Shown one piece after another: positions 12,782 through 60,843 of a stretch of DNA of 64,000 bases. The number at the start of each line of letters is the position of its first letter. Positions within the stretch are counted from its first letter, which is position 1. Both the position numbers and the translations under genes were made by a program. This DNA comes from a virus: positions 17,886 through 81,885 of IMG/VR virus record IMGVR_UViG_3300031551_000001; one strand, written 5' to 3'. The notes beneath the pieces were generated by a model, which was given only the letters and a program-made list of their open reading frames with translations, had not been told where the DNA came from and made no database searches.

Positions 12782-13314
12782 AATTTTATTATTTGTACCT
12801 GTCCTCTTACAGCTTGTTTAAATGCTTTACTTACGTTAATGGCTCTTATAAGGTCTGTTCCGTTAAGTGGTATTTTTCCAGACAAAAGGGAAGATGTCAT
12901 GAGACTCCCAATAGCCTCTGCGTGGCCTACTCCTATTGAAGCGTATGGAAGCTCACAAGACAAGACAGTAAAATTATTATCAATCTCAAAAATCTTTTTG
13001 CCTGTGTTTATTAATATATTCCACAATCCATCAAGCGTAGATACCACATCATTATCCCTTAAATGATCAATAAAATTAGTATACACAGAATCTTCATCAA
13101 TCAAATCTTTTGCGATAGGATTAAATGATGTTTCATTGATCATTTTTCTTAGTTCGTGGATTATTATTGTTTTACCGGCAACACCAATTAAGATGTCTTT
13201 GTGTTGGAATATCTTCTTGTAATTTGTTCTGTAAACATTATCGCCATCATAATAATATGAATCAGAAGCCATCCACGACCCCTTACTCGATATAATTGTT
13301 GCTACTGCGCTCAT
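12778..13314 (-). CDS. HslV/proteasome-beta-like Ntn hydrolase
   Basis: WMASDS, KKIF, IGVAG and YASIGVG..AIGSL motifs. Confidence 0.75.
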   Translation of the reverse strand: MSAVATIISSKGSWMASDSYYYDGDNVYRTNYKKIFQHKDILIGVAGKTIIIHELRKMINETSFNPIAKDLIDEDSVYTNFIDHLRDNDVVSTLDGLWNILINTGKKIFEIDNNFTVLSCELPYASIGVGHAEAIGSLMTSSLLSGKIPLNGTDLIRAINVSKAFKQAVRGQVQIIKL

Positions 13315-14209
13315 TTTTTATTATTTTATTAATATTTTCTGCACTTATTCTAAATCCAGCAGCCCCCTTATGACCACCACCCCCTAGGCTTTTAGCTATA
13401 ATAGAACAATCAGCTTTTCCATTATCATTATATAAACTAAAATTATATGTTCCATTTGCATAATGGAAACAAGCCGCCCCATCATATCCGTCTTTATGAT
13501 AATTTATGCCAAAATTTATGGGATTAAAACGTTCTTTATTTACACAAATAAATTTCCTAACAGTGGTAATATTATTTTCTATTAATTCTACAAATTCTAT
13601 AGGAAATCCATTTTTATATGATTGCTTCGCCTCTGTACATAAGTATTTATAAATTTCTTTTCCAGATGAAATCATTCTATCAGTTAAAAATGATTCTTTT
13701 ATACTTTTTTCAAGCCATTTATAACATTCGTCAACATTACTTATGTTAGCTCGGGCAGCATATTGAAATTCTAATACCTTTTGTTCTTCATTGGTTCCTT
13801 TGTGCCTAAAGCAATCATATCTACCGAGTAAACGAACAAATTCTGGCATTGGTTCTTTAGGGAAACAATAATCCCAAGTAAGTTCACATGCGGCAAATTT
13901 ATTGTCTAGATAATTAATACAAAAAGATTCTCCATCTCCAATAAATTTCTTATAATCATCAATAGCTGATTTATGGTGATCAATCCATATAAATTGCCAT
14001 CCAGATCCTTTTGCATATTTTTCCATTATCTCAATTGGAAATGAAACGTCAACCATAACAATTTTTTCGTTTTCAGGAATATTAGGAAATTCATCTCCAT
14101 AATTCCATCCAAACAATTTAAGATCAATTTCTTTTTCTTTACACCATTTTTTTACGATAGCAGCGCTACACCAACCATCTAAATCTATTGAATGATAAAT
14201 ACAATACAT
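13283..14209 (-). CDS. DHH/DHHA1 phosphoesterase
   Basis: H..DLDG, VD, WIDHH and GGGGHKGAAGF motifs. Confidence 0.92.
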   Translation of the reverse strand: MYCIYHSIDLDGWCSAAIVKKWCKEKEIDLKLFGWNYGDEFPNIPENEKIVMVDVSFPIEIMEKYAKGSGWQFIWIDHHKSAIDDYKKFIGDGESFCINYLDNKFAACELTWDYCFPKEPMPEFVRLLGRYDCFRHKGTNEEQKVLEFQYAARANISNVDECYKWLEKSIKESFLTDRMISSGKEIYKYLCTEAKQSYKNGFPIEFVELIENNITTVRKFICVNKERFNPINFGINYHKDGYDGAACFHYANGTYNFSLYNDNGKADCSIIAKSLGGGGHKGAAGFRISAENINKIIKNERSSNNYIE

Positions 14210-14221
14210 AATTTTAATGTT

Positions 14222-14566
14222 TTATGAGTGCTTAATTAAGAATGTTCCAATTTCAAGACATTGTTCTTTGGGAATTGTAATTTGAATAACAACATCTCCA
14301 TTATCATTTTCTATCCAACTGGCCTTGTCAAGAGTAAAAGTGTGTCCTTCTTTTGAAGTTCCTTTAAGAATATTCTTTTCAATTTCTCTTTCTGTTTCTT
14401 CTATTATATCCTCAGTAGATTGGCCGTCAGAAGGAATGTCACTGTATAGTGGTTCTTTGATATTCGATGTAAATGGCGGAGGGTTGACGCTTTCTTTTGT
14501 CGGCTCAACAGGCGATAATTTACCTGCCTTTTTAAGTTTACTTCCAATTTTTAATAAGTCTTTCAT
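14222..14566 (-). CDS. Hypothetical protein (first gene of the leftward operon)
   Basis: 114-aa ORF preceded by AACTAACGG. Confidence 0.65.
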   Translation of the reverse strand: MKDLLKIGSKLKKAGKLSPVEPTKESVNPPPFTSNIKEPLYSDIPSDGQSTEDIIEETEREIEKNILKGTSKEGHTFTLDKASWIENDNGDVVIQITIPKEQCLEIGTFLIKHS

Positions 14567-14696
14567 ATAAAGTTTCCGTTAGTTTCAAAAACAAAGTACT
14601 GAAATATATTTTTAATAAACAAATATTTTTGATGAAAAATTAATAAAATAGTTGTGCAAATATTTTTTCATGTGAATATTTTTTCATAATATTGTC

Positions 14697-14747
14697 AACG
14701 GACGAATATAAATTGTCGTTTTAATGTAATTTATACCTTGTTAGCTG
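14697..14747 (-). other. attC-like recombination site
   Basis: Minus strand reads CAGCTAAC-N4-TATAAATT...AATTTATA-N7-GTT, an imperfect hairpin with inverse-core and core ends. Confidence 0.6.
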
Positions 14748-14789
14748 ACTGGTGTGGATAATTTAGTACAAACTTTAATAAAAGAACGA

Positions 14790-15752
14790 ATGATAGTAAA
14801 AGAAAAAAAAGGAGGGTGTTTTTTTGACTTAATACAAGGAGATTGTTCTATTGAAAACGAATATATAAAAGATGGTAGTGTTGACCTTATTTTAACTGAT
14901 TTGCCTTATGGTACTGTAAAGGGTATGGGTGGAGATATGGCGAAATATAAACACCTAAGTAATGCAAGTTGGGACGTTGTTATACCTACCGAAAAGATAA
15001 TGCAGATTGCAAACAGAATACTTAGGAAAAACGGCAAAATGGTATTGACCGCAAACCAACCGTTTACAACTGAGCTAATAAGTAAGCAGATACCTAACTT
15101 GCCACATTGCTATAATATGTATTGGGATAAAATGCACTTTGCAAATTGTTTGGTTGCAAACAAAGCTCCAGTAAGCTACATGGAGGATATTTTGGTTTTT
15201 AGTAAAGATTATGACTTTGAAAACTTGCACCCACTTAGAGAATACTTTAGTAATGTACTTTCTTTTATTGGGCTTAAAAAGAAAACCATAATTGAAACAA
15301 TAGGGCAAAGGGCAGACCATGTATTTAGGGTGAAAAGTTCGCAATTTGAATTATGCAAAAAAGAAACATATTTGGCTTTGATTGCTGAATATAGGATTAA
15401 CAATATGGATGACTTTTTAAATTATACGGAACTTGAAAACATAAACGAAAAATACACAAGCACTTTTAATCTATGGGAAGGAAACAAACACAAAAGCAAT
15501 ATACTTAAATACAAAAAGGATTATGATGGGCTCCATCCAACACAAAAGCCTGTATTATTGCTTGAAGATTTGATTAAGACTTTTAGCAATAAAAACGACT
15601 TAGTTGTTGATTTGACAATGGGAAGCGGAAGTACTGGTGTAGCTTGTAAGAATACCAAACGTAACTTTATAGGAATTGAAAAAGACGAGAAGTATTTTGA
15701 TATAGCAGTAAACCGAATTAAAATTATTGAACCAAAACCCCAACAACTTTGA
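14790..15752 (+). CDS. N4-cytosine/N6-adenine DNA methyltransferase (beta class)
   Basis: TDLPYG (motif IV) precedes HPTQKP and DLTMGSGSTG (motif I). ATG at 14790; the ORF track uses an upstream GTG at 14754. Confidence 0.93.
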   Translation: MIVKEKKGGCFFDLIQGDCSIENEYIKDGSVDLILTDLPYGTVKGMGGDMAKYKHLSNASWDVVIPTEKIMQIANRILRKNGKMVLTANQPFTTELISKQIPNLPHCYNMYWDKMHFANCLVANKAPVSYMEDILVFSKDYDFENLHPLREYFSNVLSFIGLKKKTIIETIGQRADHVFRVKSSQFELCKKETYLALIAEYRINNMDDFLNYTELENINEKYTSTFNLWEGNKHKSNILKYKKDYDGLHPTQKPVLLLEDLIKTFSNKNDLVVDLTMGSGSTGVACKNTKRNFIGIEKDEKYFDIAVNRIKIIEPKPQQL

Positions 15753-15834
15753 AAAAGTTGAAGCGGGCTGGCTTTTTTCTTTTACGGATGAACCATATAA
15801 CCTTGATTAAGTGAACGAATGTAGTGCTTGCAGC

Positions 15835-15860
15835 TAACTACTTTATATAAACAATTCAAA
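15835..15860 (-). repeat. 26-bp attI-like site, copy 1
   Basis: Minus strand TTTGAATTGTTTATATAAAGTAGTTA; 25/26 identical to 60800-60825. Confidence 0.75.
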
Positions 15861-16156
15861 ATTTTAATCTTATAACTTTTACTGTCATTAGCGGTATGTA
15901 AAATTTTTTTACTAACTGAATTTTCTCATAATTTTTAGGCATAACTCCAATTTAAAAGAAAAGTTTGCCAACAAGAAAGAAGGATGTTTTGCATCCTTTT
16001 CGAATGTTGTGCCAAATTTATGTGCGAAGCTTATAAATTTAAGTTGTGGTATAAATAAAGAACTTTAAAAAGAAAGAAATTAAAAATAAAGAAAGAAAAA
16101 TTTTACCTGATCGAACAAATGTAAGTCTATGAACGTTTCAAACCCAAAAAGGGAAT

Positions 16157-16270
16157 CAATAAAAAACCGACTGAGTGCGCTGGTAGCTAAACACACAATC
16201 GGTTTATTGAAAAAAAATATCTTATTGCTACCAGCCCCGGTTAAATATTTAAAGAACTGGCACAAATATA
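16157..16270 (-). promoter_or_regulatory. TAnnTTTG promoter followed by a structured leader (interleaved inverted repeats, terminator-like)
   Basis: TATATTTG at 16263-16270; 9-bp IR 16227-16235/16179-16187; second IR 16199-16209/16157-16170 with a U-rich 3' arm. Confidence 0.55.
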
Positions 16271-16313
16271 CAAAATATTTTTAATTGCTTTTTTCGAATA
16301 AAATTTTTTTCAT

Positions 16314-17562
16314 AAATATTTCGGCAAAGAAGCCCATTGATGCCGAAGGCTCGATGGGAGGAATTGCCGCCCCGTAATTAAATTGTTTTCAAATATAAGA
16401 AAATATATTAAATAATTTGCTATCTTTGTGATATGAAATTGACATTGAAAATAAAACTTTTGCCCACTGACGAACAGACTAACTTGCTTCTCGAAACGAT
16501 GAAGGAAGCTAATGCTGTTTGTAATGCCATATCTGATGTTGCTTGGCAAGAAAGGATTTTCAATAATTTTAAACTCCATCACAAAGTTTACCATTCTTAC
16601 AAGGCTACGTTTAAACTTTCTTCTCAAATGCTTATCAGGCAAATAGCTAAAGTTGCTGATGCTTATAAGCTGGATAAGAAAACTAAACGTACTTTTAATC
16701 CACTTGGCGGTATCGCCTACGATAGTAGGATAATGACTTACAAGCCTGACAATGTGATTTCTTTGTGGTGTATTGGTGGCAGACAAAAGATTGATTTTGT
16801 TTGCCACAACCCTGCTTATATTCCTTACATCAAAGGGGAAGCTGATTTGGTTTACAAGAAAGGTAAGCTTTACTTGTTTCAAACTGTTGATGTACCCGAA
16901 GAAGATGTTGAGGACGTAGAAAGCTTCGTGGGTGTGGATTTTGGTTTGGTTTCGATTGCCACACTTAGTAATGGAAAAGAATTTAACTCTAAAATACTTC
17001 AAGAATATCGAGAAAAAAGACAAAAAGTAAGAAGCTCCGTTCAAAGCAAACGCACAAGAGGAAGTAAAAAACTCTTGAAAAGGCTTTCTGGCAGAGAACG
17101 TACACACGCTTCTATCACTAACCATACGATTGCGAAACAAATTGTTCAAATTGCAAAAGAAGAAAACAAAGGAATTGCTTTGGAAGATTTGAAAGGCATC
17201 AGATTTTCTTCTTTGAAAAAAGGCAAAAAGTTTAGAACAAAAGTTGGAAAGTGGTCTTTTAATCAGTTGCGTCAATACATTTCCTACAAAGCTATTCTTA
17301 ATGGTGTTCCTGTTGTTTTGGTTAATCCAAGATACACAAGCAAAACTTGTAATAACTGCCACCACATAGGAAATAGAAAAGGAAAAGTATTTGAATGCAA
17401 CAACTGCGGAAACAGTATGGATGCCGATGTTAACGCATCGCTCAATATTGCTACGCTGGGGGCAATCGTAAATTTGCCTGAAAAGTCGGATATGTATAGC
17501 TGCGCTTTGCATTATTCAGATTTAAAGCCCACCCCATCGCTTTGCGTGGGTGGGTAGTTTAC
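16314..17562 (+). mobile_element. IS200/IS605 family, tnpB-only (IS1341-like) element
   Basis: Left hairpin CCCATTGA...TCGATGGG with guide GAAG at +16..+19 after TCAT; right hairpin CCCACCC...GGGTGGG with guide AAAG, ending TTAC. Confidence 0.85.
16433..17557 (+). CDS. tnpB: RNA-guided endonuclease TnpB
   Basis: RuvC motifs GVDFG, ALEDL, DADVNA; CxxC...CxxC zinc finger; TATCTTTG promoter at 16421. Confidence 0.95.
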   Translation: MKLTLKIKLLPTDEQTNLLLETMKEANAVCNAISDVAWQERIFNNFKLHHKVYHSYKATFKLSSQMLIRQIAKVADAYKLDKKTKRTFNPLGGIAYDSRIMTYKPDNVISLWCIGGRQKIDFVCHNPAYIPYIKGEADLVYKKGKLYLFQTVDVPEEDVEDVESFVGVDFGLVSIATLSNGKEFNSKILQEYREKRQKVRSSVQSKRTRGSKKLLKRLSGRERTHASITNHTIAKQIVQIAKEENKGIALEDLKGIRFSSLKKGKKFRTKVGKWSFNQLRQYISYKAILNGVPVVLVNPRYTSKTCNNCHHIGNRKGKVFECNNCGNSMDADVNASLNIATLGAIVNLPEKSDMYSCALHYSDLKPTPSLCVGG

Positions 17563-18063
17563 CGGATAACTTTTCAACAACTCTTTCTTTTTATTGTAAA
17601 ATATACTAAAATCAGTATTTGGCCACTCTTTTTTATAATTTTCTCTTCCTTTTTCTGTTCCCTGGTCAATAAGAGTGTGTTCAATCGGGACCAATTGCAT
17701 TATATTATCCGGGTTATATCTGAATAAGGGATATTGTTTTTTGGGAAGAATATGTGCAAACATATTCAGAAATAAATTGTGATTTACTTTAGTTAAATCT
17801 CTTCCACTTATTTCAGATCTGTGAGGACGATTTTTCCATATCCACCTAAACATATTCAGCTCAGATTTGAATCCCCACTGAAACACATCAAAGTCATATT
17901 TATTTTTTGACAAGCATTTGTTTCTTTCTTTGATGGATTTCTTCTTTATTGTTCGTACAATATCACTTCTCAGGAATTGATGTATTTTACAATATCCTTT
18001 CCCTGTATTTTTATCTGTTCCGAAAACGTTGTAATTACAATTCTGGGCACTACAAATTCTCAT
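17512..18063 (-). CDS. HNH-like nuclease with N-terminal Cys/His motif; C-terminus replaced by IS sequence
   Basis: CSAQNC...CKIH and AHILPKKQYP..R...DNI..L...EH motifs. Start refined to 18063. Confidence 0.65.
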   Translation of the reverse strand: MRICSAQNCNYNVFGTDKNTGKGYCKIHQFLRSDIVRTIKKKSIKERNKCLSKNKYDFDVFQWGFKSELNMFRWIWKNRPHRSEISGRDLTKVNHNLFLNMFAHILPKKQYPLFRYNPDNIMQLVPIEHTLIDQGTEKGRENYKKEWPNTDFSIFYNKKKELLKSYPVNYPPTQSDGVGFKSE

Positions 18064-30003: not shown

Positions 30004-30090
30004 GTTGTTCAATTCCTTATTTATTTGTTTGTTATAAACGTAATTTTTATTGAATAAAGATTAGCGAAAGGGCATTTTTTTTCTTCTACT

Positions 30091-30119: not shown

Positions 30120-31181
30120 ATGTCAGAAACGGAAAATACACAAGAAACTTCTGTGGAAAACACAGAACAAGAAACCGAAGAGACTCAGGAAACCCAATAT
30201 GATTTAGAAGGGTTTAACAAGCACTTCGGAAGTGATTTTAAAGATGAAGGTTCTTTGAGAGAATTTTTAAATAGTCCTTCGAAATACGAAGAACAACTCA
30301 GCCAAAAAGACACTGAGTTACAGTCTGCTTTAGAGAGAGCCCAAAAATATGACTACTTTATCGAACACGCAGACCCTAAGAAGCTATATGGTGATGAAGA
30401 TACAATGCGTTTCGTATCGTTGAAACAAAAATTTCCTGATAAGGATTTGTCTCTTATATCACAGGTAGTAAGTCCCAATTTCGAAAAGATGTCTAATGTA
30501 GACAAGTTGGTACTCGCAGATAAGTTTGAGGTCATTGATCCATCACTTTCTGATGAGGACAGAAGGAGGGGAATATTAAGGTCGCTGAGAATTGATGCCG
30601 ATGATATATCGGAACTTACAAAAGAAGATCAATATGTCATATCAAGAGAGGTTGCTAAACACAATGAACTCTTCAAGAGCATAAGAGATCACAAACCTGA
30701 AGAGGGAGCTTATAATCTTGCAGATGAAATTGAAAAAAACAAGCAGACAAAATCTCAACAATTGGAGGACAGAAAGAAAAAATGGGAACCGATAGCTAAA
30801 TCCTTGTTGAAGAATTTCGAATCTACCAAGGTTTACGATAAAGATGAAAAAGGAAATGATGTTGAAGTCTTTTCATATTCTGTGGATGATACTTTCAGGG
30901 AGAAGTTCGCTGAAAAGTTTCTGGAAGATTTGGTCAATTCAGGGCTTGAACCTACAAAGGAGAACGCCCAACAAGCAATGGCTTATATTGACCAGCAATT
31001 CAGAACCTCTTATTTTGATAAGATAGTTCGTGAAGCGCAGAAAGCAGCAAGAACGAAAGTAGAGGATGAAACTCACAAAGAGATTCATAACGACAGAGAG
31101 CAGAACACAACCCAGAGAGAGGCTGGTGGTGAAATTCCGAAGTCAATAAGGGAAAAATTCGGTGTCCAGAGAAATAAGTAA
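30120..31181 (+). CDS. Probable scaffolding protein
   Basis: Acidic E/T/Q-rich N-terminus, helical, immediately before MCP. Start refined to ATG 30120. Confidence 0.65.
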   Translation: MSETENTQETSVENTEQETEETQETQYDLEGFNKHFGSDFKDEGSLREFLNSPSKYEEQLSQKDTELQSALERAQKYDYFIEHADPKKLYGDEDTMRFVSLKQKFPDKDLSLISQVVSPNFEKMSNVDKLVLADKFEVIDPSLSDEDRRRGILRSLRIDADDISELTKEDQYVISREVAKHNELFKSIRDHKPEEGAYNLADEIEKNKQTKSQQLEDRKKKWEPIAKSLLKNFESTKVYDKDEKGNDVEVFSYSVDDTFREKFAEKFLEDLVNSGLEPTKENAQQAMAYIDQQFRTSYFDKIVREAQKAARTKVEDETHKEIHNDREQNTTQREAGGEIPKSIREKFGVQRNK

Positions 31182-36170: not shown

Positions 36171-38452
36171 TAAAATATTATATTATATTGACATTTTTGG
36201 TCTTGACAAATTTTGTCAATGCACAATTAACGGCAGGTCTTACTGCTTATTGGGGGTTAGATGAAGAATCCGGGACTATTGTTGATTCTGTAGGTTCAAA
36301 TGATGGTACTGTTACGGGGGCTACCTATGAAGCAACAGGGAAACTAAATACATGCCTTTCTTTTGATGGTAATGGAGATTATATTACATTTCCTGATGTA
36401 GCAGATTTACAGGGTTATGGAGATGATTTCGGAATGGGTGCATGGATATATCCCACACAATACTCAGGGGATGATTACAGGTATATTTTTGGTGGAGAAG
36501 AATATGCTTTTGGTATGGCAATAAATGCTATTTCTGAGGCACTTGTAATGAGGGTTATAGGCGCGTATTCATCTCCGTCAAGTTCATTTACTATTCCTTT
36601 AAATCAATGGTCTTTTGTATATTGTCAGATTGATTATTCTGAAACAACGAATGATGTTAGTTTTTATTGTAATGGTACTATGAATACGGTTACATTTAAT
36701 CATGATGCAACTAGCGGTTCATCTACTAATTTAATAGGGTGTAGAGAAGTTGGTCATGATTATTTTATAGGTAGAATTGACGATTCTTTTATTACTAAAA
36801 CTTTAAAAACAGAAGCACAATTAGATTCTATTTATAATTTAGGTGCTGGTAAAATATATCCTTGGGATTTTAGTGAAGGAACGGGGTTGGAATCTGGTTT
36901 TATTAGAAGTGAAATAGCACAATCTATGTGGAGAATTGAAGTTCAGAAAATTGCATTTCGTATTCCTTATGAGTCAGAAGGCGAAGAAGAAGAAACAGAA
37001 ATATCAACTTATCACATGGACGGTACTTGTCCCGAAAGTACACATCGTTGGGATGATTATGATTGTGCAGAAAATGATTTTGATAATCTTTCGTCAAGTT
37101 TGGCAATATCAGACACGAACGATTTTGCAGAAGTAATTTATATTGATCCTGACGCTCCTCCTGAAGGAGATGGTACTTATGGGTCTCCTTATGATTCATG
37201 GGAAGATATAGGAACAGGAACAAATAATTATGCTTATGTACAAAAGCGAGGAACTACTTGTGAAATTACAAGCACATTCGCCCCTACCGCTAACGGATTT
37301 ATGATGGGGGCTTATGGAGAAGGAGAGCGACCAATTATTCATAAAACAAATGCAGGAGATATTATTGATATTGATTACAAAGTGTGTATTCGAGATCTCT
37401 CTATAAGAGGTTATGCTGCTGTTGCGGATGCGGGGGAATTAATATTTTTTCATGGTGCTGCTGACGAATCATTTGTATACAATTGTGAATTAAGTTATGC
37501 TTATATTGGTCTTTTTTTATGGGCAGATAAATGCAGATTGATTAATAATGAAATATCCTATATGTATTTGGATGGAATATGGACAGGAGAAGCTTCTTAT
37601 ATTGAAATATCTCATAATAATATACATCACATTAATAGAGCCTACGATACAAATCCTTCTGAAAGTGTTGCCGGAGGAGACGGAATTCAATTTGCTTATA
37701 ATTGGTCGCAAGGGTGGATACACGATAATATAATAGACAGGTCAACGGAAGGAAATAAATTTTGTCTAGCTATAATCCCTGATGTAACAAAACGACCTTA
37801 TAACCAAAAGTTTATTATTGAATTTAATTCATTCACGGGCCCTCCTTATGATGAAGGAGGAGGGGCCTCCGTTATGCTAGATAGTGCTAAAAATTCAATC
37901 ATCCAATATAATCATTTTAAAGGAGTAGAAGGTACAGGCTCTAATGGGCGTGGAATATGGCTTGAATATGCATATAATGATACTTTGATGGGAAATACTT
38001 TTGAAGGTTATTGGATAGGTATACAAGGTGCTACACCAAATATGAATATTATTTTAAACAACAATACATTTTATGATAATGATGGATATATTGCTGTTAA
38101 TATTGATGGAAAATTTTATAATAATATATTTTCTGTTCCTACCGGAGCAAGTTCTTTTTCAAACATTAATTTAGACGATGAAAGTAATAATCTTTTTACA
38201 ATAACTGTTCCTGTTGGATGGAGTGGGTCATTTCATGGGAATCCTCATTATGTAGATTCTTTAAACAGTGATTTCACATTGCAAAGTAATTCAGATGCTA
38301 TTGATGCGGGGATAGAGCTTGATTACTATAATTATGATATTACAAAAAAAGAAATAACCGGAGATACAGATTGCGGAGCTTATGAACATAATTTATGGTG
38401 GCTTATTATGCTTTTACCGTTCTTATTTTTCAATTATAAAAGAAAAAGATAA
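36167..38452 (+). CDS. LamG + right-handed beta-helix protein with signal peptide and C-terminal membrane anchor
   Basis: NFVNA|Q; LTAYWGLDE..G, FDG.GDYI and FIGRIDD (LamG); PbH repeats; DCGAYE followed by LWWLIMLLPFLFFNYKRKR. Confidence 0.8.
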   Translation: MIKYYIILTFLVLTNFVNAQLTAGLTAYWGLDEESGTIVDSVGSNDGTVTGATYEATGKLNTCLSFDGNGDYITFPDVADLQGYGDDFGMGAWIYPTQYSGDDYRYIFGGEEYAFGMAINAISEALVMRVIGAYSSPSSSFTIPLNQWSFVYCQIDYSETTNDVSFYCNGTMNTVTFNHDATSGSSTNLIGCREVGHDYFIGRIDDSFITKTLKTEAQLDSIYNLGAGKIYPWDFSEGTGLESGFIRSEIAQSMWRIEVQKIAFRIPYESEGEEEETEISTYHMDGTCPESTHRWDDYDCAENDFDNLSSSLAISDTNDFAEVIYIDPDAPPEGDGTYGSPYDSWEDIGTGTNNYAYVQKRGTTCEITSTFAPTANGFMMGAYGEGERPIIHKTNAGDIIDIDYKVCIRDLSIRGYAAVADAGELIFFHGAADESFVYNCELSYAYIGLFLWADKCRLINNEISYMYLDGIWTGEASYIEISHNNIHHINRAYDTNPSESVAGGDGIQFAYNWSQGWIHDNIIDRSTEGNKFCLAIIPDVTKRPYNQKFIIEFNSFTGPPYDEGGGASVMLDSAKNSIIQYNHFKGVEGTGSNGRGIWLEYAYNDTLMGNTFEGYWIGIQGATPNMNIILNNNTFYDNDGYIAVNIDGKFYNNIFSVPTGASSFSNINLDDESNNLFTITVPVGWSGSFHGNPHYVDSLNSDFTLQSNSDAIDAGIELDYYNYDITKKEITGDTDCGAYEHNLWWLIMLLPFLFFNYKRKR

Positions 38453-38457
38453 AAATT

Positions 38458-39213
38458 ATGAACAATGGTGATATATTTGGATTTGTAAACGCTGTTTTAA
38501 GAAAGGAAAAAGAGGGATCTGTTTTAACTCCTGCACAGTTTAATCTTTTTCTTAAAACTTCTATGTGGGAGAAAATCAATTCAAATTTTAAGAGATTTGA
38601 AGAATCTCAGATTATCACAGATTCGTTGGGTGAATTAAGGGTTGACGCAGAAACCCTTGCTATTGACGCGGACGGAGAGGGAGATTTGAGTGGGCTTAGT
38701 GAAACTTATTTGCATGTAATACCAAATCCAACTTATATATATTCCGGTTCTGTAAGGGAAATTGATATTGTAACAGCGGGGGAATATGCTCATTATTCTG
38801 CGAGTGCATCAATGGCTCCAGATGCAACATGGCCTATTGCTAAAATAGTAGGGGATACAATATATGTTAATCCGCTTGTAAGCGTTAATATATCTTTTTC
38901 TTATTTTAAGGAACCGGATGAATCTTATTATGATTATTACGTAGACGCAAATGATGAGCAGGTTTATCTGGAGGTGGGGGCATCACACACTCTTTTGGCC
39001 GGAGAGGAATATGTCGATAAGGATGATGGTACGGTAAGGGGCGAAGATTATGAAATTACGGCAGAAATAAATCATTCTGTAGAATTACCATTTCCAGACA
39101 ATGAAAGAATAGATGTAGCGTATAAGATTTTGCAAAAAATGGGTATTCCTGTTGACAAGATAGTTGCCACTGAATATGGTTCGTTCAGAGAACAAAAAGA
39201 AGAAATGTTATGA
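38458..39213 (+). CDS. Tail ring/adaptor protein
   Basis: KEKEG..LTPAQFN, Y.KEP and ELP motifs; typical size and position of crAss-like ring proteins. Confidence 0.65.
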   Translation: MNNGDIFGFVNAVLRKEKEGSVLTPAQFNLFLKTSMWEKINSNFKRFEESQIITDSLGELRVDAETLAIDADGEGDLSGLSETYLHVIPNPTYIYSGSVREIDIVTAGEYAHYSASASMAPDATWPIAKIVGDTIYVNPLVSVNISFSYFKEPDESYYDYYVDANDEQVYLEVGASHTLLAGEEYVDKDDGTVRGEDYEITAEINHSVELPFPDNERIDVAYKILQKMGIPVDKIVATEYGSFREQKEEML

Positions 39214-55808: not shown

Positions 55809-57002
55809 GTGAAAACAATACATCGCACATATCGCTTTGCAATAATACCAAATCAGGAGCAACAAATCCTGTTGAGTAAACATTTTGGTTGTGTTAGATG
55901 GGCTTACAATCATTTTCTCAACGAGAGGAAAGAGCAGTATGAGTTGAGTAAAAAATCAGACAATTACTATGAACAAGCTGCAACACTAACGGAATTAAAG
56001 AAGAAAGAAGAAACTATCTGGCTGAAAGAAGTGAATAGTCAAACTCTACAATTTGCTTTAAGGAGTTTAGATACTGCTTATGTAAATTTCTTTCGTGGTA
56101 ATGCTAAGTTTCCGCGATTTAAAAGCAGGAGAGATAAAAACACATTTACCGTTCCTCAATTTGTAACAGTTGAAAAAGATATATTGTATATCCCAAAATT
56201 CAAAGACGGAATTAAAATTAATCTTCACAGGGAAATAAAAGGCGAAGTAAAGCATTGCACTATAAGTAAATCACCAACAGACAAATATTTTGTTTCAATA
56301 CTTTGTGAAACTCAATATGAACCGAAACAGAAAACAGGAAAAGAAATTGGAATAGATTTGGGATTAAAAGATTTTGTAATTACTTCGGATGGAATTAAAT
56401 TTAAAAATAATCGTTACACAAAACACCATGAACGTGCTTTAGCAAAAGCACAAAAACACCTTTCTCGTAAAACTAAAGGCAGTAATCGGTATGAAAACCA
56501 AAGACTGAAAGTTGCCTTGTTGCATGAGAAAACAGCCAATTCAAGATTAGACAATTTACACAAAGTAAGTTCTCAAATCATTTTTGATAATGATGTAATT
56601 TGTTTAGAAGATTTACACATTAAAGGAATGATTAAAAACCATAAACTTGCCAAACACATATCGGATGCAAGTTGGGGAACATTTGTGAGATTGTTGGAAT
56701 ACAAAGCTGACTGGAATGATAAGCGAGTGGTAAAAATAAATCGCTTCTTTCCATCTTCTAAAACCTGTGGTTCTTGTGGTTGGATAAATCAAAATTTGAA
56801 CCTTTCTGATAGAGAATGGATTTGCAAGTGTGGAATAACCCACGACAGGGATTTAAACGCTGCAAGAAACATCTTAAAGGAAGGACAAAAAATAATCGGG
56901 ACGGAACTTTCCGATTACACGCTTCGAGGCAAAAATCAGACTTCTGCAAAGAAGCACAAGCCAATGAAAAGCGAAGCCCATTTGTCTTTAGCAAATGGGT
57001 AG
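55809..57002 (+). CDS. tnpB: RNA-guided endonuclease TnpB
   Basis: N-terminal HTH (FGCVRWAYN); RuvC GIDLG, CLEDL, DRDLNAA; zinc finger; GTG start after TATCTTTG (55796). Confidence 0.95.
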   Translation: MKTIHRTYRFAIIPNQEQQILLSKHFGCVRWAYNHFLNERKEQYELSKKSDNYYEQAATLTELKKKEETIWLKEVNSQTLQFALRSLDTAYVNFFRGNAKFPRFKSRRDKNTFTVPQFVTVEKDILYIPKFKDGIKINLHREIKGEVKHCTISKSPTDKYFVSILCETQYEPKQKTGKEIGIDLGLKDFVITSDGIKFKNNRYTKHHERALAKAQKHLSRKTKGSNRYENQRLKVALLHEKTANSRLDNLHKVSSQIIFDNDVICLEDLHIKGMIKNHKLAKHISDASWGTFVRLLEYKADWNDKRVVKINRFFPSSKTCGSCGWINQNLNLSDREWICKCGITHDRDLNAARNILKEGQKIIGTELSDYTLRGKNQTSAKKHKPMKSEAHLSLANG

Positions 57003-57378: not shown

Positions 57379-57541
57379 TCATCTCTTTTTCTGTATCAAA
57401 TATTTTAACCAAACTTTTAAACTCAGCAGTTATACTTCTGCTTTTTATGTATTTTATAACAAAATATTTTTCACCTTCATCTATTATAATACCTTGTGAA
57501 TCTTTATATCCAATTCCAAATGCAACAAATTTTCCTATCAT
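57335..57541 (-). CDS. Hypothetical protein
   Basis: 68-aa ORF. Confidence 0.55.
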   Translation of the reverse strand: MIGKFVAFGIGYKDSQGIIIDEGEKYFVIKYIKSRSITAEFKSLVKIFDTEKEMNEWISAQGYQYDPR

Positions 57542-57607
57542 ATTTAATTATTTATTTAAAGTAGATAGCACCAATACCGCATCTAGCGGTCAGGTGCGAC
57601 TAGTTTG

Positions 57608-60766: not shown

Positions 60767-60799
60767 GTTTTGTGGTTTAATCTTTTTTAACTCCTTTTA

Positions 60800-60825
60800 T
60801 TTGAATTGTTTATATAAAATAGTTA
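60800..60825 (+). repeat. 26-bp attI-like site, copy 2
   Basis: TTTGAATTGTTTATATAAAATAGTTA; 25/26 identical to the reverse complement of 15835-15860. Confidence 0.75.
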
Positions 60826-60843
60826 ACAAACGTTTGCCAACGT

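Follow-up and report, generated by a model that had tools for sequence, protein, structure and literature searches.

A phage methylase gene with an upstream hairpin site, probably a single-gene cassette of an attC-like family

Main

How might a lytic phage that encodes no integrase come to carry one gene as a discrete, exchangeable unit? The question is raised by a locus in IMG/VR virus record IMGVR_UViG_3300031551_000001 (G000), an 81,885-bp record rated 90% complete, with 33% G+C and probably derived from a lytic phage of marine Flavobacteria. Bases 17886-81885 of this record were analysed as one stretch of 64,000 nucleotides, here called the window, whose numbering is used throughout. At 14699-15837, on the plus strand, 1,139 bp between two AA|C points (G|TT on the other strand) hold an orphan N6/N4 DNA methyltransferase gene (hereafter methylase; 14790-15752, plus) preceded by a hairpin site. 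An original prediction, made from the letters of the window, had described this segment as an integron-type gene cassette in a phage with no integrase in the window. Here we argue that the methylase and its 55-nt upstream hairpin site are probably a single-gene mobile cassette of an attC-like family that circulates among phages, the named members of which infect marine Flavobacteriia.

A methylase gene between complementary ends

On the minus strand, the attC-like site (14692-14747) reads CAGCTAAC (R''), AAGG, the stem arm TATAAATT, a 13-nt loop containing CATTAAAACG, the stem arm AATTTATA, TTCGTCC and G|TTGAC (R'). On the plus strand, it runs from GTCAAC (14694-14699) and GGACGAA (14700-14706), both read directly from the letters, through the left arm (14707-14714), the loop (14715-14727) and the right arm (14728-14735) of an 8-bp A/T hairpin to a CCTT spacer (14736-14739) and the R box GTTAGCTG (14740-14747). 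At the far end of the cassette, a second R box, CAGCTAAC (15831-15838, plus), is the exact reverse complement of GTTAGCTG, with 8/8 positions pairing. All sequence elements named in the original prediction are present, including this complementarity of the ends, which it took to be the hallmark of integron cassettes.

Taken within this genome alone, the case for a cassette is weak. GTTAGCTG occurs three times in the genome versus 0.97 expected, and TTATA-N7-GTTRRC four times versus 0.27 expected. As it lies, the site folds as DNA at -3.6 kcal/mol (z -0.5), no better than shuffles. For a hypothetical circle junction, the folding energy is -8.2 kcal/mol (z -2.6), a value reached by 4/300 shuffles, and the fold shows two stems with a 4/7-nt spacer. 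On within-genome evidence of this sort, before the site family described below emerged, ordinary phage mosaicism was clearly the favoured explanation. The evidence that the pattern is more than chance lies outside the window: homologous covarying sites, end pairing across a whole family, and a compensatory change in a homologous contig, L141.

A family of covarying hairpin sites

A search with the site's own stem letters, covering viral contigs and the genomes of 185,579 species, gave one viral match, a homologous site in L141; two matches in the species' genomes (a methanogen and a Firmicutes scaffold) look like AT-rich chance and were rejected. The loop of the L141 site is identical at 11/13 positions, and two paired changes lengthen its stem to 10 bp; the cassette ends (GTTAGATG / CATCTAAC), which enclose an unrelated 167-aa gene, have both changed in a way that preserves 8/8 pairing. 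In Cellulophaga phage phi10:1, a structural scan of the loci yielded a third site, which shares the loop but differs in its stem. In a further contig, L211, a 1,145-bp cassette (1,139 bp here) carries a homologous methylase and leader, with a different R box (GTTATGCC / GGCATAAC), different stem letters and unrelated flanks.

We then ran the pattern TAACA-N10-14-CATTAAAACG-N14-20-GTTG, which leaves the stems unspecified, on the viral contigs. It matched at least 119 stretches, giving at least 125 sites of which at least 111 are unique; the family counts used below (111, 97, 93 and 44 sites or cassettes) rest on the matches listed from these at least 119 stretches. Stems of the 111 unique sites, which have 82 distinct left arms, form a mean of 7.07 of 9 Watson-Crick pairs, versus 4.13 after right arms are reassigned among the sites. 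Covariation was scored on a MAFFT alignment with the structure set by hand; on the same alignment, in which the stems are out of register, RNAalifold predicted no pairs. Pairing cells make up 70.0% versus 49.8% in shuffles (0/500 reach this value), cells changed on both sides number 268 versus 105.6 in shuffles, and the covariation score is 0.506 versus 0.190 in shuffles (0/500 reach it) and 0.10-0.21 when slid. The loop is invariant across family sites; AAC and GTT are invariant as well, but both were fixed by the search pattern.

End pairing is enriched across the family too. Among sites with at least 600 nt on the gene side, we looked 120-3500 nt away for the exact reverse complement of the site 8-mer (nnnnTAAC) and found it for 41/97 sites, versus 5.6 with the 8-mers of other sites and 10 on the wrong side, with most partners 190-1270 nt from the site. 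A profile of the 111 sites matches this locus at 14696-14746 (minus; E 3.5e-07), its sole match in the 81.9-kb genome, and gives 159 hits in 123/263 sequences examined. Thirty of the 123 site-bearing sequences hold arrays of 2-4 co-oriented sites, 150-3200 nt apart, in which the following site starts directly after ...TAA|C. The original prediction had proposed to look for such arrays with a model of the site, and had likened it to cassette-like repeats in Flavobacteria; the arrays exist in other phages, and sites of the family occur in Polaribacter phage P12002L and Cellulophaga phage phi10:1.

Slot replacement in a close relative

Through the neighbouring 114-aa protein, which has only three homologues in 5.8 billion proteins, we found a relative (G001; L127, a 35,863-bp contig) that matches the window at 91-99% identity, in blocks. 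Homology stops at 14703 and resumes at 15833, the flanks common to both genomes being ...TAATATTGTYAACGGAC on the left and AACTACTTTATATAA... on the right. Between them, a 424-bp segment with a plus-strand 108-aa open reading frame (ORF) replaces the 1,129-bp methylase segment (14704-15832). Both breakpoints fall within ~5 bp of the predicted G|TT cuts, so the cassette ends proposed from one genome are recovered with another gene in the slot; breakpoints elsewhere in a relative would have spoken against them.

Taken alone, the comparison with G001 would fit a cassette or mosaicism alike. Under ordinary phage mosaicism, this would be a hypervariable accessory-gene slot whose genes are swapped by homologous recombination in conserved flanks, namely the promoter region to the left and the repeated 30-nt motif to the right, with the hairpin as only a leader element. 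The two genomes do differ by ~15 gene-sized insertions, deletions or replacements across the shared 32 kb (window 1706-34130), most of them at plain gene boundaries without such a site; the G001 allele is without the family hairpin; and the right flank is a repeated motif with eight copies. Shuffling mediated by promoter early stem-loop (PeSL) elements, with mini-circles, is moreover documented in the available text of PMC2839356. PeSLs, however, flank genes on both sides, whereas the hairpin and left flank are single-copy here. Mosaicism also leaves three features unexplained: the family-wide end pairing (41/97 versus 5.6-10), the compensatory changes in L141 and L211, and the same type of site in unrelated flanks (one shared-flank pair among 93 sites). 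We therefore regard mosaicism as an unlikely account of the locus.

Cargo of the cassettes

Within the family, we delimited 44 cassettes of 231-2322 bp by their paired ends. In 42/44, no antisense ORF exceeds the longest ORF that points away from the hairpin. Ten cassettes encode methylases (six N6_N4, two C5, one MT-A70 and one D12-class) and one a Tad6-type Thoeris inhibitor (PF25188, E 8.7e-42). The other Pfam matches are one AraC-type helix-turn-helix protein, one DUF6717 protein and one weak match to a spore-surface protein (PF12655), and 30/44 cassette ORFs, most of them small, belong to no Pfam family. Homologues of the present methylase lie directly behind a site in five other contigs (L211, L016, L023, L065 and L080), with a gap of 44-46 nt between site and methylase alignment in the last four, and a family site occurs in 9/79 methylase loci.

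Two of the sites are in a cultured phage. In Polaribacter phage P12002L (NC_028924, L263), one site (30006-30055) stands before the methylase gene gp35 and another (30907-30957) before gp36, likewise a methylase gene, and the gp35 cassette ends GTTAGGCAC / GTGCCTAAC are a compensatory pair. According to the available text of PMC9892861, a screen of 10,705 phage genomes gave 17 clusters of attC sites lacking integron integrases (CALINs), of which that in P12002L encodes two putative methylases; its attC2 site recombined with attI1 under IntI1 in E. coli. The two P12002L sites found here are presumably attC1 and attC2 of that study. Our literature search returned no description of this site family besides that relevant paper. 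By eye, P12002L also has, at ~38025-38110 and 38870-38945, the same AAC...GTT frame and stems with longer, other loops, and these variants precede the Mom-like gp53 and the methylase gp54. Because of them, the fixed-loop family is probably one branch of a wider set. The G001 slot gene starts with a spacer and half-stem that resemble these long-loop sites.

The consistent placement of the site raises another possibility, that the hairpin is an expression signal travelling with genes (a hairpin promoter for a phage RNA polymerase, a site in the 5′ untranslated region for a regulator that recognises the fixed loop, or a terminator of the preceding gene) and that end pairing is a by-product. The site always lies just upstream of an ORF in the sense direction (42/44) and its loop is invariant, as in a protein-binding site; at this locus, the two positions that would extend the stem read G.T on the mRNA-sense strand and A.C on its complement. 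An expression signal would nevertheless have no reason to pair with the far gene end, 0.2-2.3 kb off, or to mark breakpoints between relatives. There is no family-wide strand bias, and Rfam has no match for the site and no corresponding family. In the crAss-like phage phi14:2, the available text of bioRxiv 10.1101/2020.03.07.982082 describes early transcripts without a common upstream motif. This explanation seems to us quite improbable.

The recombinase and the weight of the evidence

The window contains an IS605-like complete pair (54915-57002) in which a Y1 transposase (178-aa ORF, 54915-55451, minus; PF01797, E 8.5e-36) is divergent from a TnpB gene (422 aa, plus). That this Y1 (HUH) transposase of the IS200/IS605 type moves the cassette as single-stranded DNA is very improbable: such enzymes recognise DNA hairpins, this one is encoded by the phage beside a TnpB gene, and a TnpB-only insertion sequence (IS) lies 450 bp from the cassette, but PF01797 is found in 0/37 other site-bearing records, the cassette has a single hairpin and not one per end, the hairpins at the IS ends here are rich in G+C and do not resemble the site, and methylase and TnpB are unlinked elsewhere (0/79 loci).

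Several observations weigh against a mobile cassette. First, tyrosine (PF00589) and serine (PF00239) recombinases have no match in the whole 81,885-bp record, so the lack of an integrase that had been noted for the window extends to the entire record; a control of the PF00589 search found the family in 14/14 genomes. PF00589 occurs in 5/37 site-bearing records, and in 3/13 of those that are at least 90% complete, always 2-19 kb from the sites and never adjacent. Because PF00589 is present in 5/37 and Y1 in 0/37 site-bearing records, the recombinase is usually not encoded by the carrier. The proposal that the phage acquires anti-restriction genes through a host or phage tyrosine-recombinase cassette system agrees with the cargo, which is rich in methylases and includes one anti-defence gene; its enzyme stays putative.

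Second, exact 8-mer pairing is seen in only 42% of sites. A flank is shared by only one pair among 93 sites, which is uninformative and provides no second same-slot comparison. Wobble counts for G.T versus A.C (57 versus 55) do not indicate a folding strand, and the connection to the recombination experiment in P12002L passes through a presumed identity of the sites. Third, 70/79 methylase loci are without a site, and the closest methylase homologues (L004 and L008) sit in tight operons without such sites. Finally, a profile search finds no family site in G001, neither elsewhere nor at the slot gene, whose hypothetical junction does not fold (z +0.5), and G001 homology runs 5 nt (CGGAC) beyond the predicted left cut. 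The empty allele expected in related genomes was not found either: the G001 slot holds a replacement, and exact-letter searches for slot alleles returned only the G001 contig.

Relation to known systems

How far is this an integron cassette? The original description as integron-type holds in that the unit is discrete and attC-like; it fails in that there is no IntI, the site is 5′ of the gene, the loop is conserved and the site is single. The likeness to integron cassettes and CALINs comprises a single ORF with one imperfect-palindrome site bearing AAC...GTT cores, two stems that an unequal spacer (4 and 7 nt) separates in the predicted circle-junction fold, ends that would pair in the circle, co-oriented site arrays in some genomes, methylase cargo and the lack of a phage integrase; the CALIN-bearing phage P12002L itself carries two sites of the family. 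The attC core consensus is RYYYAAC for R'' and GTTRRRY for R'. The circle-form cores here, AGCTAAC and GTTAGCT, each miss it by one base, and R' as it lies reads GTTGACA.

The differences are of several kinds. In a classical integron attC lies at the 3′ end of a promoterless ORF, whereas here the site is at the 5′ end and the gene is inverted. The loops of attC sites vary, whereas the family loop is fixed at 10-11 nt within a short site (47-55 nt); attC sites have extrahelical bases, whereas the hairpin copy here is without a bulged base; and integron arrays stand beside attI/intI, whereas here a single site lies in one copy of a dispersed 30-nt motif. If the site counts as an attC, the locus fits the class of single attC sites without an integrase; a CALIN needs at least two sites.

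PeSLs of the T4-type phages RB49 and phi1, as described in the available text of PMC2839356, are likewise short repeated non-coding elements that bound early-region accessory genes; there too, close relatives differ by gene swaps at the elements, and mini-circles are proposed as vectors. They are repeated promoter-terminator units that recombine by homology, whereas here only the right-hand motif is repeated. Set against PeSLs, the single-copy hairpin, covarying stems and complementary ends point to site-specific recombination of folded DNA. The likeness to IS200/IS605 elements lies in hairpin-dependent recognition, and elements of this type occur, and are active, in the lineage of this phage; they have hairpins at both ends and their own transposase, whereas the cassette has one hairpin and the transposase is missing in 37/37 other carriers.

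The cargo enzyme itself is an unremarkable orphan phage DNA methyltransferase (PF01555), an ordinary member with hundreds of phage relatives, and it is the vehicle that differs. Its gene starts at ATG 14790, the longest ORF starting from GTG 14754, and its PF01555 match (E 3.3e-31; 109.4 bits versus a curated cut-off of 26.7) spans profile positions 1-220/221. Relatives were confirmed in 110/117 candidate stretches in viral contigs, the best at 80% amino-acid identity; the nearest methylases in named phages are those of Polaribacter phage Danklef (61%) and Cellulophaga phage phi10:1 (58%). Across 79 viral loci, DNA similarity to the methylase region is confined to 14824-15759, and a megablast search of 13000-18000 against named phages gave no match.

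Flanks of the slot

On the left, the cassette abuts a resident flank (14659-14698, plus) that is near-identical in G001 to 14703 and has no repeats elsewhere in G000 or G001. It contains TAATATTG (14687-14694), a putative -7 box of the Bacteroidota type that faces the cassette gene; the consensus of this box is TAnnTTTG. The box may act as a promoter, and a sigma-70 promoter scan called nothing at the left flank. Just upstream of it, a tandem direct repeat of AATATTTTTTCAT, in two copies 3 nt apart (14661-14686), is kept in G001.

On the right, the cassette abuts a copy of a repeated phage motif (15839-15863, plus; beginning TACTTTATATAAACAATTCAAA) that is conserved in G001 beside the other gene. 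By nhmmer, this 30-nt motif, GCTAACTACTTTAyATAAACAATTCAAA, has eight copies in the genome, three of them in the window (15827-15863, 57537-57574 and 60798-60832) and five before its start (window coordinates -3250, -4762, -5077, -6088 and -14824). Each copy lies just past the stop of a gene with its sense following the local genes, and two copies supply that stop codon themselves, as the TAA within CTAAC. Seven copies are oriented along the minus strand and lie between genes of that strand; the copy at the cassette is oriented along the plus strand, as is the methylase. The left-hand site was also considered as a weak copy of this motif and rejected, the motif profile having no match there even at E 100.

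The original prediction had cast the right-hand site as attI-like, a candidate role that the distribution of the motif does not support. The other seven copies have no detectable cassette: six have no exact 8-mer partner, and at the seventh (57574) the only exact match lies 152 nt off, without a gene in the interval or a fold like that of a site. The predicted empty site, TTGTYAAC|TACTTTATATAAAC, resembles the copy at 60798-60832, which reads TTGTTAAC|TATTTTATATAAAC. An exact pattern search for the motif found nothing, a degenerate pattern found G001 and one unrelated contig (L140), and a profile search (E up to 1) returned only G000, G001 and L140, so that the motif appears once outside this lineage. 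By eye, the DNA after the last cassette in five contigs (L169, L189, L257, L188 and L250) is similar to it, which the profile does not confirm. The motif may be gene punctuation that simply offers a G|TT, a promoter-associated box or a recombination pad.

Neighbouring genes and elements

Downstream of the slot, a non-coding block of 98 bp (15931-16028), 97% identical to G001, lies between two variable segments. The terminator scan called a single terminator-like hairpin in the region, and it falls in this block, on the minus strand at 15998-15980; a terminator that had been read by eye behind the methylase was not among the calls and was set aside.

Beyond this block lies the TnpB-only IS200/IS605-type element (16300/16306-17562), the ends of which were set by homology in 36 viral loci. 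Its TnpB ORF (16433-17557, plus) matches PF07282 (E 6e-24) and phrog_506 (E 1e-43), and a 400-aa unbroken minus-strand ORF (16310-17512), long for 33% G+C, is the antisense shadow of TnpB; the TnpB gene of the IS605-like pair described above is a second one. We also considered the methylase as a passenger of the TnpB element and rejected this, as the IS ends lie at 16300/16306 and 17562 and TnpB occurs in 0/79 methylase loci. The element is missing from the same place in G001, which has three TnpB genes elsewhere. Opposite window 16029-17563, a 1.77-kb segment of G001 contains two ORFs, one of 141 aa on the minus strand and one of 247 aa on the plus strand. By eye, the beginning of the 247-aa ORF looks like a GIY-YIG homing endonuclease; this intergenic spot gathers selfish elements.

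To the left of the locus, the minus strand carries the genes. Among them, a DHH-family phosphoesterase gene (13283-14209, minus) corresponds to a clean 909-bp insertion relative to G001 (window 13315-14223), bounded exactly by the stop codon of the 114-aa gene on one side and the start codon of a 178-aa gene on the other. The DHH-family protein has only three relatives, at 48-50% amino-acid identity and without synteny.

Discussion

If the methylase and its hairpin form a mobile cassette, the sequence suggests how it might move. The cassette would leave or enter as a circle, in which the joined ends would complete, beneath the L stem of 8-10 bp, an R stem of 8 bp. Strands would be exchanged at G|TT (AA|C on the gene strand) by a site-specific recombinase that recognises structure and is not encoded by the phage, and in this genome the cassette would have been placed between the resident promoter-like flank and one copy of the 30-nt motif. 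There, transcription starting in the resident flank would pass the hairpin leader and enter the methylase gene, and the product, an orphan N6/N4 enzyme, would methylate phage DNA, blunting host restriction.

A bolder reading, which we put forward tentatively and hold to be possible rather than probable, is that of a dedicated gene-exchange network among lytic phages of marine Flavobacteriia. In such a network, fixed 10-nt-loop hairpins, served by a probably host-borne recombinase, would allow one-gene circles with counter-defence cargo (four methylase classes and Tad6) to pass from one phage to an unrelated one and to insert at G|TT points, for instance that of the 30-nt motif. If true, the network would be an integron turned inside out, without an integrase in the carrier.

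The published attC clusters of virulent phages are extended here to a large, structurally distinct family of sites, and the question that the family raises is which enzyme serves it. The unit, both of its ends and the docking hairpin are resolved to single bases, and sites of this kind are found in two cultured phage-host pairs, those of Polaribacter phage P12002L and Cellulophaga phage phi10:1. The cargo can also be read as a catalogue of candidate counter-defence genes, 33/44 of which are neither methylase nor Tad6. A cassette system of this kind would offer a testable route by which strictly lytic phages gather and trade anti-defence genes.

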